A stretch of 10,542 bases of DNA, taken from a virus. This document shows, one piece after another, positions 1 through 7,118 of this stretch. Each line of letters begins with the position of its first letter. Position 1 is the stretch's first letter. Under the pieces are notes generated by a model that had not been told where the DNA came from, made no database searches, and was given only the letters and a program-made list of their open reading frames with translations. The position numbers were made by a program, and so were the translations under genes. Location of the stretch: the UHGV virus genome UHGV-0077157; one strand, 5' to 3'.

Positions 1-88
1 ATTATGAGTCGCTCGCTCTCACCACTGAGCTAAAGGGCCGGGAGCAGAATAATAATGGTGCGTAATTAATTCTGCAATCTCATCCGTT

Positions 89-1138
89 TCAAACGATTAA
101 ATCCTGAACTTCCCTGACTGTCTGTTCAAAACGTCCTGTCTCCAGCTCAACACCAATCGCACAACGCCCCAGTGCCATCGCCGCTTTTACCGTTGAACCT
201 GAACCCATAAAAAAATCTGCAACCAGGTCTCCCGGACGACTGCTCGCGTTGATTATCTGCTGCAGCATTTCTGCCGGTTTTTCGCACGGATGTTTCCCTG
301 GATAGTACTGCACCGGTTTATGCGTCCAGACATCGGTGTACGGAACCTGCGCCGTCACACCGAAATACCGCCGCAAATTTTTATATTCACTCAGCAGTTC
401 CGTATACTGCCGGTTCAGCTCACTGTATGTGCTGACCAGCTGGTGGTGTGGCTTTTCCAGTTCCCCGCGCTGATGTTTTTCTGCCGCAACACGCGCAAAC
501 AACGCCTGCAATTTATTGTAATCACCCTCGTTCGGTAACTGCCACTGACTGGCACCAAACCAGTGCGAAGCCATGTTTTTCTTTCCGGTGGCTTCCGCTA
601 TCTGTTTTGACGTTATTCCCAGTGATTTACGCGCATCACGAAAGTAAGAAATCAGCGGGGCCATGACGTGCTGTTTTAGCTCGCGCCCCTGCTCCACATA
701 GCCATCATCTTTCGGGCGATACGGTCCCTGATAATGTTCTGCAAACAGAATGCGCTCTGTTGCCGGAAAATACGCCCGCAGACTTTCCTTATTGCACCCG
801 TTCCAGCGTCCGGACGGCTTCGCCCAGATAATGTGGTTCAGCACATTAAAGCGCTCACGCATCATGATTTCGGTGTCAGATGCCAGGCGATGACCACAGA
901 ACAGGTAAAGACTTCCGGCAGGCTTCAGTACCCGCCAGAACTGCGCCAGACACTGGTCCAGCCATTTCAGGTAATCATCGTCGCCCTCCCACTGGTTATC
1001 CCAGCCCTCGGGCTTCACTTTAAAGTATGGCGGGTCTGTGACTATCAGATCGACAGAATTTTCCGGTAAGGTCTGGATAAATTCCAGGCAATCAGCGTTG
1101 ATTAACTCACAACTGGATATTTTTACAGTATTGGCCAT
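89..1138 (-). CDS. DNA methyltransferase, beta-class (N6-adenine or N4-cytosine), phage-type orphan MTase
   Basis: 349-aa ORF. Catalytic DPPY motif near the N-terminus (LIVTDPPY) and AdoMet-binding FxGxG-like motif near the C-terminus (DFFMGSGST), i.e. motif IV before motif I as in beta-class amino-MTases. No restriction endonuclease partner visible in the window; only 88 bp remain downstream. Confidence 0.85.
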   Translation of the reverse strand: MANTVKISSCELINADCLEFIQTLPENSVDLIVTDPPYFKVKPEGWDNQWEGDDDYLKWLDQCLAQFWRVLKPAGSLYLFCGHRLASDTEIMMRERFNVLNHIIWAKPSGRWNGCNKESLRAYFPATERILFAEHYQGPYRPKDDGYVEQGRELKQHVMAPLISYFRDARKSLGITSKQIAEATGKKNMASHWFGASQWQLPNEGDYNKLQALFARVAAEKHQRGELEKPHHQLVSTYSELNRQYTELLSEYKNLRRYFGVTAQVPYTDVWTHKPVQYYPGKHPCEKPAEMLQQIINASSRPGDLVADFFMGSGSTVKAAMALGRCAIGVELETGRFEQTVREVQDLIV

Positions 1139-1277
1139 AGATCAATAAGCACTTCTCTGATAGGCTCATACCGCTTTTGCGCAAAGCAGATGGGCCTGAG
1201 GTTTGCTTGTGACCCCAACGCATGAGCAGATGGCTGGCAGGTGCCGCTAACACCCACCAGCCGCCCATTACCACAAA

Positions 1278-1304
1278 TTAAAAAGCCTTCACTGCGGAAG
1301 GCGT
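1278..1304 (-). terminator. Putative intrinsic terminator after the small winged-helix gene
   Basis: Minus-strand RNA forms GCCTTC-CGCAGT-GAAGGC hairpin (plus 1285..1302) followed by TTTTTAATTT. The TGA stop of the upstream ORF lies inside the hairpin. Confidence 0.4.
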
Positions 1305-1486
1305 CTGTAACAACCGAACTGATAATCTGCCAGACCCGCCATAACAAGCTGGGTCAGGATTAACTGGCAGCGTTCGCGTGAAAGGTAAGTATTCTGCGCA
1401 ATTTCCCCGACGGTCGCCGGTTCGGTGACGCTTAATTCATTAAACACCACTCTGGCGGTTTCGGTCATATCCAGCTGTTTTAGCAT
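1289..1486 (-). CDS. Small (65 aa) putative winged-helix DNA-binding protein, function unknown
   Basis: The 106-aa ORF is trimmed to the internal ATG at 1486, which has an AAGGG Shine-Dalgarno about 8 nt upstream; the ATG at 1609 directly abuts the terminator U-tract and has no RBS. Sequence MLKQLDMTETARVVFNELSVTEPATVGEIAQNTYLSRERCQLILTQLVMAGLADY resembles small wHTH regulators (FaeA/PapI-like or MarR-like pattern). Bracketed by terminators on both sides. Confidence 0.45.
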   Translation of the reverse strand: MLKQLDMTETARVVFNELSVTEPATVGEIAQNTYLSRERCQLILTQLVMAGLADYQFGCYRRLPQ

Positions 1487-1607
1487 GCCTTTTTCCCTTT
1501 TCCGGTTAACGTGACATACCAATACCTCTTGTCGAAAAAGCCAGCAAGCTGAAAGACCAGTATTCACAACAACCAGCGCGTTTAATGTTCTGTGCCGTTT
1601 TTCAGGC

Positions 1608-1636
1608 ATAAAAAAACCCGCATAAAGCGGGTTCTT
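1608..1636 (-). terminator. Strong rho-independent terminator downstream of the Q-like gene (tR'-like)
   Basis: Minus-strand RNA: ACCCGC-UUUAU-GCGGGU hairpin followed by a 7-U tract (reverse complement of plus 1610..1633). Lies about 165-190 nt downstream of the Q-like stop codon, matching the PR'-tR' spacing of the lambda late leader. Confidence 0.6.
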
Positions 1637-1798
1637 TCAGGTGTCCATGTCTGCTATTCGCCTCGCGGTACAGCTTTGCGAAGCGTAGCTGGATTGAAAC
1701 AGTTTATGGCTAAAAATACAAGCTTTTTTTCTAAAACTGCACAAACCTTACTACCAGCCAAAAATCCTCTTCGTGCAACAACAAACGCCCTCCAGATT
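1637..1798 (-). promoter_or_regulatory. Inferred late promoter / Q-utilisation (PR'/qut-like) region and short late leader
   Basis: Non-coding 160-bp interval between the Q-like stop and the terminator, assigned by synteny with lambda Q-PR'-tR'. No near-consensus -35/-10 pair could be placed with confidence. Confidence 0.3.
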
Positions 1799-2353
1799 CT
1801 AAGCGTCAGTAAAAGAAAATGCATCTCGCATCAGTGGATACAGAATAAACTCAGCTATTCTCAGCCACATATCTATACGATTGCGGCATGTTGCATAGCA
1901 CCACTCAGGGTGAACCTCATTCAACAATTCAGCCATTTTGCGTTTACTCATCCCCCGCCCTTCGTACCTTTGCCGCAGGATATCAATCAATCCAGGATAA
2001 CGTGCAAGCGCTTTACTTATCACCCCATCAATGCGTAACGCCTCTGCATCAGTACAGTGAGACAACCAGCTCTTCTGTCTGCCAGCGATCATCTCTCGCA
2101 AGAATGCTTCCAGCTCTGGTTTATCAATCCCTGACTCCCTGATTCTACGCAGGGCTTCATTGACCGCGGTTTTTGTCAGTTTTTTGGATGCCAGCAACTG
2201 ATTGAACATATTTCCTGGTTTGCCACCACCTATATACGACCAACGCCCCCACATCCGTAATTTCCCCTGGATCCAGACGGCTTCCAGCGTTTTTAGACGT
2301 AAATGCTCGCCGCTTTTGCCTGTAATTTCCGGGTATATCATATTTACGATCAC
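1799..2353 (-). CDS. Putative late-gene antiterminator (Q-like), assigned mainly by position
   Basis: 184-aa ORF immediately after rusA and immediately before a promoter-proximal terminator, the canonical Q position. GTG start at 2353 overlaps the rusA stop (GTGA); alternative ATG at 2341. No recognisable motif beyond synteny. Confidence 0.5.
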   Translation of the reverse strand: MIVNMIYPEITGKSGEHLRLKTLEAVWIQGKLRMWGRWSYIGGGKPGNMFNQLLASKKLTKTAVNEALRRIRESGIDKPELEAFLREMIAGRQKSWLSHCTDAEALRIDGVISKALARYPGLIDILRQRYEGRGMSKRKMAELLNEVHPEWCYATCRNRIDMWLRIAEFILYPLMRDAFSFTDA

Positions 2354-5408: not shown

Positions 5409-6283
5409 GCAGCCACACCTCTGATACGAGAACGATAGCTGGGCCAGTTAAACGACAACCAGTTGCGTCCCCCGTCTGTGATCCTGTCGGCAATGCGGGG
5501 GCTGATGAATGCCCACAACTCTTCCGGTGAAAGGTTGCTGATCAGGATGGTGGGCAGGATGCTTTCGTACCGGGCATTGATAATTTCCTGCAAAATAGCC
5601 ATTTCAGCCGCGCTGCCAAACTGAACGCCGACTTCGTCGATGATCAGCAAATCCATTGACGCATAATGCTCAATAACTTCATCCGCTGTTTTTTCGCTGT
5701 CATTTCGCCAGCAGTTTTTCACAGCACGGGTAAGGCGCATCACATCAGTAATCTCCACACTAGCCAGATGGTTACGGATGATGTGTTTTGCCATAGCCAC
5801 AGCCAGATGATTTTTTCCAGTACCACAACTGCCTGTCAGAACAAGACTGGTACCGTTAGCCAGAACATCCTCCCAGCTCTCCGCATAGCGGCGGCAGGCA
5901 GCAAGATTTCTGGCTGCATCAGAGTTAATCTCCTGATAGTTTTCAAACTCACAGTCGCGAAACCTACAGGCAACACCAGCATTCTCAATCAGCACATCAG
6001 CTTTCATTGCAACCAGAGTCCGATGTGTCACATCCATTTCATCCACCAGACACTCCGGACAGCGGGAAATTTTTGAGGCAGCGCCCCCCTGCCGATCATC
6101 CCACACCAGTATATGCGTACGATATTTACCGTGTTTTTCGCAGCATCCAACTCCTTCAGATTCCCGACAGGCACGGTAAGGCCATGGCTTTTCGCCATTC
6201 TGAGCAAATGCAATCTCTGCCCGTAACTCATCCATTCGCGCCTGTAGTCTTGTTTGTTTCTCACGTTGGTCAATCGTCATCAT
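5405..6283 (-). CDS. DnaC/IstB-like AAA+ helicase loader with N-terminal Cys-rich (zinc-ribbon-like) region
   Basis: Walker A LTGSCGTGKNHLAVAMA, Walker B DLLIIDEVG. N-terminal CCEKHGKYRTH...CPEC cysteine cluster. Start placed at ATG 6283 (GAGGTG 6 nt upstream); the ORF track extends to GTG 6292. Confidence 0.85.
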   Translation of the reverse strand: MMTIDQREKQTRLQARMDELRAEIAFAQNGEKPWPYRACRESEGVGCCEKHGKYRTHILVWDDRQGGAASKISRCPECLVDEMDVTHRTLVAMKADVLIENAGVACRFRDCEFENYQEINSDAARNLAACRRYAESWEDVLANGTSLVLTGSCGTGKNHLAVAMAKHIIRNHLASVEITDVMRLTRAVKNCWRNDSEKTADEVIEHYASMDLLIIDEVGVQFGSAAEMAILQEIINARYESILPTILISNLSPEELWAFISPRIADRITDGGRNWLSFNWPSYRSRIRGVAA

Positions 6284-6293
6284 CGCTGTCACC

Positions 6294-7118
6294 TCAGAAT
6301 GTCAATTTGTTACTGGATTTACCGTATTTGTCAGACATGGCTCCCAGGCCAGCCAGGACATCGACCTGTCGCTGTCGCCCACCTCCGTGAGCGGCTGGCT
6401 GTTGCCAGTAATCTTCGAAGTGACGATCGGGTCCAAAGAACGTCGCAGCCTGCTTCACGAACTGTGTGCCGGTATTTCCTGTAGCGCGTACCCAGGCGGC
6501 ATACCGCTTCACGCCATCAAGCATGGTCTCCGGTTTTATTCCCTCCCTGATACGGGCTTTCCAGGCTTTGAAGGCTGCTGACTTGGAATTGCCACCAGCA
6601 CGTTTGGGATATTCCTGCCAGGCCTGTTCAAATTCCGGTGAATATTCCTGTCGGGCGGAACGCGCTGGTGCAGACGCGTCAGCGGATGCGCCAATAGTTG
6701 ATTCATTGACTGGTTCTTTGACTGGTTCAAAAGAGTGACTGGTTCTGGGTGAATCTCCTGCACCACCCCCTGGTGCAACTCCTGCACCACCTGGTGAATT
6801 TGCTGCACTAGGTAGTGAATTATTTGCACTACCACCTGGTGAATCTTTTGCACCATCAAGACGAAGAAGATAAATATTGCTCGAGTTCCCTTTTTCACCT
6901 TTCCGGGAAACTTTTTTTACCAGTCCGGATTCACAAAGAGCCGTAATATGATTCATCACAGAACGTTTGCTAATCTCGCACTGATCAGCAATATGCTGAT
7001 AGCTGGGCCAGCACTCGCCCTGATCGCTGGCATTATCAGCCAGCTTAATCAGAACCAGTTTTCGCAACGGATTTCCTACGCGAATTTTCATCGCTTTCAC
7101 CATCAGCTCCATGCTCAT
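6294..7118 (-). CDS. Replication initiation protein (lambda O-like / YdaU-like) with N-terminal wHTH and a repeat-encoded linker
   Basis: 274 aa. N-terminal winged-helix segment typical of phage initiators (LRKLVLIKLADNASDQGECWPSYQHIADQCEISKRSVMNHITALCESGLVKK). Central low-complexity linker (SPGGSANNSLPSAANSPGGAGVAPGGGAGDSP) encoded by the iteron repeats. Sits directly upstream of the loader and helicase. Confidence 0.75.
   Translation of the reverse strand: MSMELMVKAMKIRVGNPLRKLVLIKLADNASDQGECWPSYQHIADQCEISKRSVMNHITALCESGLVKKVSRKGEKGNSSNIYLLRLDGAKDSPGGSANNSLPSAANSPGGAGVAPGGGAGDSPRTSHSFEPVKEPVNESTIGASADASAPARSARQEYSPEFEQAWQEYPKRAGGNSKSAAFKAWKARIREGIKPETMLDGVKRYAAWVRATGNTGTQFVKQAATFFGPDRHFEDYWQQPAAHGGGRQRQVDVLAGLGAMSDKYGKSSNKLTF
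6745..6858. repeat. Five tandem ~22-23 bp direct repeats (iteron-like; candidate phage replication origin) inside the initiator gene
   Basis: Plus-strand copies at 6745-6767, 6768-6790, 6791-6812, 6813-6836, 6837-6858 with core CTGGTGAAT-n-CTGCACCAC. Preceded by three GACTGGTTC 9-mers (6708-6716, 6720-6728, 6737-6745) and followed by a moderately AT-rich stretch (6859-6885). Analogous to ori-lambda iterons inside the O gene. Confidence 0.5.

Follow-up and report, generated by a model that had tools for sequence, protein, structure and literature searches.

We analyzed the region between the antiterminator gene and the lysis genes of the virus genome UHGV-0077157, using the whole 10,542-nt stretch at hand (referred to below as the window), and found that its 349-aa beta-class adenine DNA methyltransferase (MTase) gene is preceded by a structured, probably cis-regulatory RNA of ~130 nt, identified by its conservation and by compensatory changes on the coding strand. 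This leader lies between a second intrinsic terminator (T2) and the MTase start codon and had been overlooked in the initial annotation of the window. It probably keeps a toxic MTase off, with a default fold that would hide the start codon and an alternative fold that could expose it. The MTase itself is an ordinary member of an already characterized family, that of M.EcoGII, in its usual place. The apparently undescribed parts of the locus are an optional winged-helix (wH) gene cassette that is often found beside the MTase and the covariation-supported leader, which shares its 5' domain with the late leader of phage lambda; tandem terminators complete the regulatory architecture around the enzyme. 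All these features are located on the minus strand, where the order from position 2353 to 89 is the Q-like antiterminator gene, the tR'-like terminator (tR'), the wH gene, T2, the leader and the MTase (Table 1).

The leader identity between genera is 0.75-0.90, as compared with 0.35-0.48 for the four-fold degenerate sites of the MTase gene, and in the most distant pair, the window and Providencia, the respective values are 0.58 and 0.22; in its degree of conservation the leader roughly equals the MTase protein. Matches to a leader profile are located immediately 5' of MTase genes in 243 of 243 cases, to which the window and one degraded locus are added. No Rfam 15 family was found at E<=1 over positions 1139-1270, ARAGORN reported no tRNA or tmRNA there, and a literature search by sequence strings retrieved nothing. 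A short upstream open reading frame (ORF) in the leader, AUG-GGC-GGC-UGG-UGG-GUG-UUG-UAG (MGGWWVL), was rejected: it varies in length, it has no ribosome-binding site, and single-nucleotide indels break every frame. The window ORFs 1107-1274 and 1123-1347 are unconserved and were also rejected as leader coding sequences. A leader variant of ~95 nt, with a P2-like hairpin retained and a different 3' part, is present in a group of viral contigs (L195, L196, L198-L202, L207, L216 and L223), where it goes with a divergent wH type (...ESRDDDTLFKRC).

To assess leader structure, 68 non-redundant leaders were aligned with MAFFT, blind to structure, and pair counts were compared to 500 shuffles and to slid controls. 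Two folds, both far above the controls, are mutually exclusive. Model 1, consisting of SL-I and SL-II, has 88.8% of its cells paired and contains 16 pairs with double-sided changes (0/500 shuffles; 28-45% paired in the slid controls). Model 2, a three-way junction of helices P1, P2 and P3 with the additional hairpin P4, has 83.5% of its cells paired and contains 15 such pairs (0/500 shuffles). Both models contain the P2 hairpin, in which 9 of 12 pairs are changed on both sides. Each model owns at least one strongly covarying pair that is unexplained by the other, which makes a choice between them impossible: the pair of alignment columns 59 and 85 belongs to P3 of model 2 (U-A 23, C-G 24, A-U 13 and U.G 2), and the pair of columns 93 and 128 to HC of model 1 (G-C 57, A-U 8 and G.U 3, with the A-U state present in at least two separate lineages). 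Helix P1 of model 2 is kept in one locus (L021) by the double change UGAGC/GCUCA. A third pairing, proposed by RNAalifold on a wider alignment (UGGGC with GCCUA), was set aside because this double change fits UGGGC/GCCCA. In partition-function folding of the 68 leaders, model 1 is dominant in ~55 (by inspection) and model 2 in ~9, with flips between close relatives. The 180 G.U cells of model 1 favor the sense strand for SL-I and HB: canonical pairing in SL-I is 99.3% for sense versus 83.6% for antisense, and in HB it is 88.2% versus 79.7%.

No canonical Shine-Dalgarno sequence was found before the MTase start codon. An invariant UGAUC (1140-1144) is located one base before the AUG and includes a GATC Dam site at positions -5 to -2. 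The 3' end of E. coli 16S rRNA reads ...GGAUCACCUCCUUA. The UGAUC is, as we take it, complementary to GAUCA (1530-1534) of this rRNA, just 5' of the anti-Shine-Dalgarno sequence, and the leader segment G(G/A)UCAC (1209-1214), which pairs with UGAUC in model 1, presumably mimics the same 16S segment. An invariant GATC could also be expected if the spacer were conserved as DNA rather than as RNA, for instance as an operator, as a site where recombination takes place or modules join, or as Dam/SeqA sites, and the mosaic junction common to the late leaders of lambda, HK022 and HK620 is in line with such an explanation. However, the P2 arms are wholly changed yet complementary in L018, L189, L192 and L284-type loci, G.U pairs are abundant, covariation exceeds both the shuffled and the slid controls, and the thermodynamic z-scores range from -3.6 to -5.1; we regard conservation as DNA as improbable, at about one chance in ten.

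The 5' domain of the leader has a wider distribution than its 3' half. Pattern scans of viral contigs revealed a variant of this domain (...GUGAAAAUGGGCGACCG, a hairpin, GCCAU..., GGCCCA and a hairpin) in 26 stretches, of which two (L392 and L398) look like chance matches. The hairpins are kept in these variants with entirely different sequences. In most of the contigs the motif follows a GC-rich terminator-like hairpin, recognizable antiterminator genes are located a few hundred nucleotides upstream, and two of the three upstream ORFs scanned with Pfam encode Q proteins, of two families (lambda-Q PF03589 and PF06323). The motif is directly followed by C5-cytosine MTases, by MTases with ParB_N and N6_N4 domains or, in contigs with no MTase at this site, by the holin of a lysis cassette (Table 1).

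The first ~97 nt of one holin-type variant (L284) match unannotated DNA between the late terminator and the holin gene S in HK022, HK620, HK544, HK633, HK542 and Sf101. Lambda carries the segment at ~45004-45100 of NC_001416 (L404 1205-1300), ~90-180 nt upstream of S, and homologous segments were located at 37075-37172 of HK022 (L402 1201-1298) and 16352-16449 of HK620 (L403). The domain that the window leader has in common with the lambda, HK022 and HK620 late leaders consists of GUGAAA-[A/G][U/C]GGG-, a 12-bp hairpin, an internal loop, GCCCGU/GCUCAU and GGUCAC[G/A]A[A/G]C. The lambda and HK022 segments fold as SL-I homologues (z=-5.1 and -4.1, respectively), and a U-A to C-G double change in both keeps the SL-I lower stem. 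In contrast to the window, the element of these three phages is followed by S without an MTase, the 3' half (GGCCCA, P4, HC and HB) is different, and the region is unannotated in the records; the late terminator of HK620 is annotated upstream of the element. By sequence, the 5' domain of the leader would be an element common to lambdoid late leaders, and three unrelated MTase families (M.EcoGII-type, C5 and ParB-N6/N4) appear to have been inserted right behind it, at a common insertion point. The 3' half, which forms HC and HB, is particular to the M.EcoGII cassette, where it pairs back with the common 5' domain.

Start-occluding leaders of toxic genes are exemplified by hok-type mRNA folding and by the RNase III-activated lambda N leader. 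In these systems, too, the 5' leader is long and structured and has folds that exclude each other, and one of the folds hides the start of a gene harmful to the host. They have no sequence relationship to the MTase leader, and the analogy is mechanistic only. Extra terminators and RNase III sites are reportedly present in the p'R late leader of lambda, and SL-I (~18 bp with an internal loop) resembles an RNase III substrate; both points are leads only. We tentatively propose, with somewhat less than even confidence, that the leader is an undescribed bistable regulatory RNA, in which the 5' domain, folded as SL-I or as P1/P2/P3, is conserved in lambda-family late leaders and marks the insertion point of at least three unrelated MTase families, and in which the 3' extension of the M.EcoGII cassette gates translation of the host-toxic enzyme. 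It can be speculated that such a switch would be operated by RNase III processing, the wH protein, a ligand such as S-adenosylmethionine or S-adenosylhomocysteine, N6-methyladenine self-modification by the MTase, or a cis-antisense RNA.

The initial annotation had recognized the MTase as a beta-class enzyme with a DPPY motif, and domain analysis bears this out: PF01555 covers residues 29-340, DPPY is located at residues 35-38 and FMGSGST at residues 310-316, which is the beta-class order (DPPY N-terminal, target recognition domain central, FxGxG C-terminal). The window enzyme has the same length and the same motif order as M.EcoGII, and it is likewise a prophage-borne orphan. In a full-length alignment it is identical to M.EcoGII at 317 of 350 positions (~91%; ~9% divergence), and in the four-helix target recognition domain, which covers residues ~160-237, at 66 of 78 positions (~85%; 12 differ), where the M.EcoGII reference is supplement 5 of the SUPREM paper (PMC11551740), machine-read and containing a few optical character recognition errors. 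The nearest solved structures are those of distant beta-class MTases only. The window's METHYLTRANSFERASE is M.EcoGII-like, and membership in this family is well supported by the sequence.

M.EcoGII is a 349-aa beta-class enzyme from a prophage of E. coli O104:H4 C227-11 that methylates adenine in any context in both DNA and RNA, and the purified enzyme is active alone (Murray et al. 2018, PMC5778455). In the lysogen, M.EcoGI and M.EcoGII are not expressed, and their constitutive expression is deleterious (PMC5778455). The same authors named a very similar MTase in phage 1720a-02 (PMC5778455), and this phage is among the best phage matches to the window, with 88.8% nucleotide identity over positions 1-1621. 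The family's reconstructed ancestors diverge considerably further and stay largely non-specific (SUPREM work, PMC11551740), and homologues with 92-93% amino-acid similarity were described with the predicted specificity 'nonspecific' in a paper on O111 Shiga-toxin-producing E. coli (STEC). Most likely, the window allele also methylates adenines in any sequence context. Metagenome and viral contig searches with the MTase alignment yielded only relatives of at least 90% identity; more divergent MTase loci were obtained with the SUPREM ancestral sequence as a query and with DNA patterns. In the literature consulted we found no description of the wH gene, the leader or the terminators as genomic neighbours of M.EcoGII-type MTases, and a search for the methylase and wH context in Shiga-toxin (Stx) phages returned nothing relevant.

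The MTase is a true orphan borne on a prophage. The initial annotation had called it an orphan, while also suggesting that a partner endonuclease could lie past the left edge of the window. This was refuted by the identical locus on the ETEC6 chromosome: RefSeq annotation of ~9 kb of its left flank contains no restriction endonuclease, and the sequence left of position 1 consists of tRNAs, TerB and DUF3927 genes and lysis genes. For this locus, a restriction-modification system split by the window edge is practically out of the question. Its sole attraction was the proximity of that edge, 88 bp from the MTase, and it is further opposed by the phiP27 and Stx2 phage modules, which continue into tRNAs, and by the description of M.EcoGII as an orphan (PMC5778455; also the O111 STEC paper).

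Terminator scans, folds, an AlphaFold2 model and dN/dS analysis bore out the earlier call of a 65-aa winged-helix gene between two intrinsic terminators, all on the minus strand, and wH is a genuine gene. Its conservation starts exactly at the ATG at 1486 (MLKQxDMT...; 19 loci from ~10 genera), in agreement with the RefSeq/PGAP call, and dN/dS values of 0.02-0.18, with synonymous sites near saturation, indicate strong purifying selection. An extended 106-aa ORF (1289-1609) was rejected, as its N-terminal extension is unconserved and overlaps tR'. The AlphaFold2 model (pLDDT 90.4) has the order H1-b-H2-H3-b-hairpin of a winged helix, and this winged helix is generic. Pfam matches to TrmB PF01978 (18.5 bits vs a cut-off of 25.6, E=0.0018) and MarR_2 are below threshold, Pfam gave nothing for FaeA, NCBIfam gave no match, and a PDB sequence search with the wH profile found nothing below E=0.1. 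Membership of the protein in the TrmB, MarR and FaeA/PapI families was rejected. The FaeA/PapI-like pattern suggested by the initial annotation was not confirmed; the likeness to PapI/FaeA consists of the small size (~65-77 aa) and the winged-helix fold. PHROGs labels phrog_331 'unknown function', and relatives of the wH protein, counted at 288 to 513 clusters, all belong to Enterobacterales under the names 'hypothetical', 'TrmB family' and 'DprA-like winged helix'. The best-conserved parts of the protein are the N-terminal MLKQxDMT and helix 3 (RCQLILTQLVMAGL). The surface residues R39, C40, Q41, T45 and Q46 of helix 3 are among the most conserved positions and, in the model, would form a nucleic-acid-binding face.

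The co-occurrence of the wH gene with the MTase differs between close and divergent loci. Among close relatives, wH is present in 163 of 163 MTase loci with enough upstream sequence, and in 18 of 20 wH genome loci (~10 genera) a full-length MTase follows 142-154 nt after the wH stop codon. The remaining two are L002, truncated 120 aa into the MTase, and the degraded, MTase-less L015. In the latter, from an Enterobacteriaceae metagenome-assembled genome, a partial wH gene is followed by the initial ~109 nt of the leader, and no MTase comes after it (6001-6285). Of the 72 MTase loci in the divergent set, 27 lack the wH gene and still keep the leader, so that wH is a frequent but optional accessory and not an obligate partner of the MTase.

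The T2 terminator immediately precedes the leader. Its hairpin, whose 3' arm overlaps with the stop codon of wH, is kept across genera via compensatory changes. Loci without wH also possess a GC hairpin and a U-run directly before the leader. Because a terminator-like hairpin precedes the leader even in these loci, and because the late terminator of HK620 is located further upstream, the 'terminator-insulated' look of the wH gene can be explained by its position: wH and its upstream box form a cassette set between two tandem late terminators. The box is a two-box element detected in an alignment of 117 unique upstream regions, with the reading AAGAGGTATTGGTATGTCAC at 1511-1530 of the window and its end ~25 nt before the wH ATG at 1486. 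A strict regular expression for it matched in 74 of 97 contexts with wH and in 2 of 73 without. It may be a weak promoter and/or an operator for the wH cassette, or something else; the promoter scan did not pick it up, and it is a poor sigma-70 match (TTGCTG-17-TAYNTG, with the -7 T missing).

The wH protein is most likely a nucleic-acid-binding regulator linked to the MTase module, and we rate a regulator tied to this module and an independent moron (an autonomous unit of promoter, gene and terminator) about equal. As a dedicated MTase controller, wH would set the timing or level of the enzyme, either in the manner of the controller (C) proteins of restriction-modification systems or as an RNA-binding factor that flips the leader. 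C-proteins are likewise small proteins of DNA-binding type encoded just upstream of a modification enzyme, which gives the concept of a timing device. The 163/163 co-occurrence at fixed spacing, the conserved surface of helix 3 and the narrowness of the family (513 clusters, with every examined wH locus beside an M.EcoGII-type MTase, degraded L015 excepted) are in line with a controller. Nevertheless, C-proteins are Xre-type helix-turn-helix proteins that act on C-boxes to delay an endonuclease, whereas here the protein is a winged helix, there is no endonuclease to delay, and wH is dispensable in many loci. The 27 loci in which the MTase and leader work without wH, the activity of purified M.EcoGII alone (PMC5778455) and the strong divergence of the wing and H1-H2, which the leader does not show, also argue against a controller, and we find it rather doubtful. 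An independent moron, expressed from the prophage and with a function unrelated to methylation such as host or phage gene regulation, seems doubtful to the same degree. The bracketing terminators, the two-box element, which travels with wH and has a variable spacer of near-constant length, a plausible ribosome-binding site of its own (AAGGG/AAAGG before the ATG) and the optional status of wH relative to the MTase would all suit it, but the two-box element is a poor sigma-70 match, and wH was not found away from the MTase or leader, again with the exception of degraded L015.

The initial annotation had placed the MTase in the late-operon cargo slot behind Q and tR', and this placement stands. 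The gene upstream of tR' is assigned to phrog_753 'anti-termination protein Q-like' (E=4e-78) and has a threshold-level match to Phage_antitermQ PF06530 (27.8 bits vs a cut-off of 26) besides its DUF1133 domain. The tR' terminator was missed by a pattern scan because its stem can extend into the U-run, and it represents a module junction because the phage-homology block stops inside it, at 1621. Matches of 1608-1713 to the isrK (21.6 bits), AgrB (27.1 bits) and Trp leader families of Rfam are sub-threshold and were judged to be terminator-driven chance. In Stx phages the slot has the order Q, tR', cargo, tRNAs, stx and lysis genes, and an identical module of wH, MTase and tRNA-Ile is present there upstream of stx in phiP27 (90.8% nucleotide identity) and in many Stx2 phages. 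The position of stx after the tRNAs is occupied in this prophage by TerB and DUF3927 genes. By the gene order of the ETEC6 left flank, the MTase region heads the late operon and falls between Q and the lysis genes. Late, Q-dependent expression, as the initial annotation had envisaged, fits the published lysogen silence and toxicity of M.EcoGI and M.EcoGII (PMC5778455). The annotation had opposed its own view to that of a known orphan MTase beside a conserved uncharacterized ORF that lacks DNA-binding activity or is untranslated. The first part of that alternative is essentially what we observed, with an MTase of the known orphan type M.EcoGII and a small ORF that is a conserved uncharacterized neighbour (phrog_331), but the small ORF is a real gene.

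Altogether, we consider the following model likely. Positions 1-2353 of the minus strand form the head end of a lambdoid prophage's late operon, followed by the tRNAs, TerB/DUF3927 and the lysis genes, and the MTase would be an orphan anti-restriction enzyme that most likely acts on adenine in any context. Because its activity harms the host, three layers would silence it in the lysogen. Two intrinsic terminators ahead of the MTase would be passed only by Q-modified RNA polymerase; the MTase lacks a canonical Shine-Dalgarno sequence; and the dominant predicted fold would pair UGAUC and the preceding bases with the upstream G(G/A)UCAC...AAGC. The two terminators and the predicted occlusion of the start suggest that the MTase may be silent in the lysogen. 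In the alternative fold, the three-way junction of P1, P2 and P3, the start region would be set free. Once the phage is induced, the MTase would be made late and would methylate progeny DNA before packaging. The wH gene is an optional extra cassette that sits between the two tandem late terminators.

Several observations weigh against this model. Q-dependence rests on gene order, because the promoter scan identified no consensus late promoter between the Q-like gene and tR'; the best candidate found by eye, TTGTGC-17-TTGTAT at 1716-1744, is weak. T2 alone is a weak terminator (-8.9 kcal/mol, z=-0.8). Only one of the two leader folds can hold at a time, some of the covariation is confined to particular clades and may have been inflated by common descent, and at least the 5' half of the leader is not MTase-specific, because it also occurs upstream of holins in loci with no MTase. 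The wH protein falls to 45% identity in L019-L021 while the leader stays E. coli-like, and its tie to the MTase is one of adjacency with no mechanistic link. Finally, P3 is canonical in 99.4% of cells on the antisense strand and in 71.1% on the sense strand, and all the sense mismatches are C.A or A.C (A3 columns 58-65/79-86).

These P3 mismatches, present at five or more positions in several clades and, by eye, in the same pattern in holin-type variants, could mean a cis-antisense RNA or bases that serve two sense-strand helices. An RNA transcribed from the plus strand over the leader could block the MTase mRNA in the lysogen in the style of type-I toxin-antitoxin or hok/sok systems, and leader conservation would then partly reflect an antisense gene. 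Toxicity of the protected gene fits this possibility, as do weak antisense promoter-like matches in 50 of 68 leaders, with the -10 over MTase codons 2-4. However, these matches reach only 8/12 on bases constrained by the conserved N-terminus MxNTVK, no terminator is evident on the antisense strand, and SL-I and HB favor the sense strand. We estimate the antisense explanation as unlikely, roughly one chance in seven.

Table 1. Features of the MTase region of UHGV-0077157 (window coordinates) and genes that follow the 5'-domain motif in viral contigs
Feature	Position	Strand	Basis
tRNA-Ile, 5' part, first of tRNA-Ile/Arg/Arg downstream of the MTase	1-39	-	Rfam tRNA partial match, 3' end cut by window edge
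MTase, 349 aa, beta-class N6-adenine DNA MTase, M.EcoGII family, predicted sequence-non-specific	89-1138	-	Pfam N6_N4_Mtase PF01555, E=2e-44
Structured MTase leader, ~130 nt	1139-1270	-	alignments A1 and A3; fold minimum free energy -62.7 kcal/mol, z=-3.6
HB helix (model 1, SL-II)	1204-1214 with 1140-1151	-	GGUCA.AAGC with GCUU..UGAUC, ends one base before AUG
HC helix (model 1), enclosed by HB, as is P4	1190-1197 with 1162-1169	-	AGGC.CAC with GUG.GCCU
P4 hairpin (models 1 and 2)	1173-1187	-	
P1 helix (model 2)	1263-1267 with 1191-1195	-	UGGGC/GCCCA
P3 helix (model 2)	1222-1229 with 1203-1210	-	UCGCUCAU/ACAAGCGA
SL-I (model 1)	1222-1268	-	AUGGGC/GCUCAU lower stem and 12-bp P2 hairpin
Second intrinsic terminator, T2	1280-1302	-	GCCUUC/GAAGGC stem, 6-nt loop, U5; scan match at stem-loop 1285-1302
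Stand-alone winged-helix (wH) protein, 65 aa, phrog_331	1289-1486	-	RefSeq WP_000917691.1, 'hypothetical' or 'TrmB family'
Two-box element upstream of wH	1511-1548	-	CTTGCTG, ~12-13 variable nt, AGAGTTAnnTGTrTGTCAC in relatives; alignment of upstream regions
Strong intrinsic terminator, tR'-like	1610-1637	-	AACCCGC/GCGGGUU stem and U7, -20.6 kcal/mol, z=-5.6
Q-to-tR' spacer, expected site of late promoter and short terminated leader RNA	1638-1798	-	read from sequence
Q-like late antiterminator (DUF1133 family)	1799-2353	-	PF06576, E=2e-101
C5-cytosine MTase (PF00145) after motif	starts 43 nt past GGCCCA		four loci: L264, L380, L382, L396
ParB_N / N6_N4 MTase after motif	starts 41-42 nt past GGCCCA		four loci: L379, L384, L390, L400
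Lysis-cassette holin after motif, no MTase			L284, L300, L381, L383, L385, L387-L389, L391, L393-L395, L397, L399, L401

The window belongs to a lambdoid prophage of E. coli that has head genes of the P27 type, and most of the window's genes are on the minus strand, in the order cro-like, Rha, replication genes, DnaB, DUF968, RusA and Q-like, followed by the MTase region; the plus strand carries the gene of a cI-like repressor. Over positions 1-2400, identity is 100% to the ETEC6 chromosome and 99.4% to E2348/69. Left of the window, the identical ETEC6 locus continues with tRNA-Ile, two tRNA-Arg, TerB, DUF3927, two holins, an M15 endolysin, HNH, a P27-family terminase and head genes, with the holins and the endolysin on the same strand ~1.7-3 kb downstream. 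The tRNA-Ile is annotated in RefSeq at L001 8964-9039 of this locus; ARAGORN made no tRNA call at 1-39 because the gene is truncated at the window edge. The TerB-family and DUF3927 cargo between the tRNAs and the holins is located at L001 8040-8614, the position of stx in Stx phages. Further right in the window, a replication-initiator-like helix-turn-helix gene (6294-7118, minus strand; L001 15372-16118) is classified by RefSeq as an incomplete pseudogene with a missing C-terminus. An intact 274-aa ORF of the window overlaps it (6294-7118), and the prophage may or may not be replication-competent.

The stretch comprising wH and the leader is found in 2142 of 5426 complete E. coli genomes (39%), with up to 7 copies per genome. 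The M.EcoGII-type enzyme is already a laboratory reagent and is biochemically well understood; how a phage silences and then deploys a promiscuous, host-toxic methylase was not found addressed in the literature consulted. Should the leader turn out to be no switch, the locus would simply represent a further copy of a known cargo gene. If it is a genuine switch, it would provide a testable model for anti-restriction regulation and the first function for a conserved piece of the classical lambda late leader, and would explain why different methylases have landed at the same spot. Moreover, because the stretch is located directly upstream of stx in many Shiga-toxin phages, the leader is there part of the stx-carrying transcript, and control of read-through, processing or stability at the leader could bear on toxin expression.

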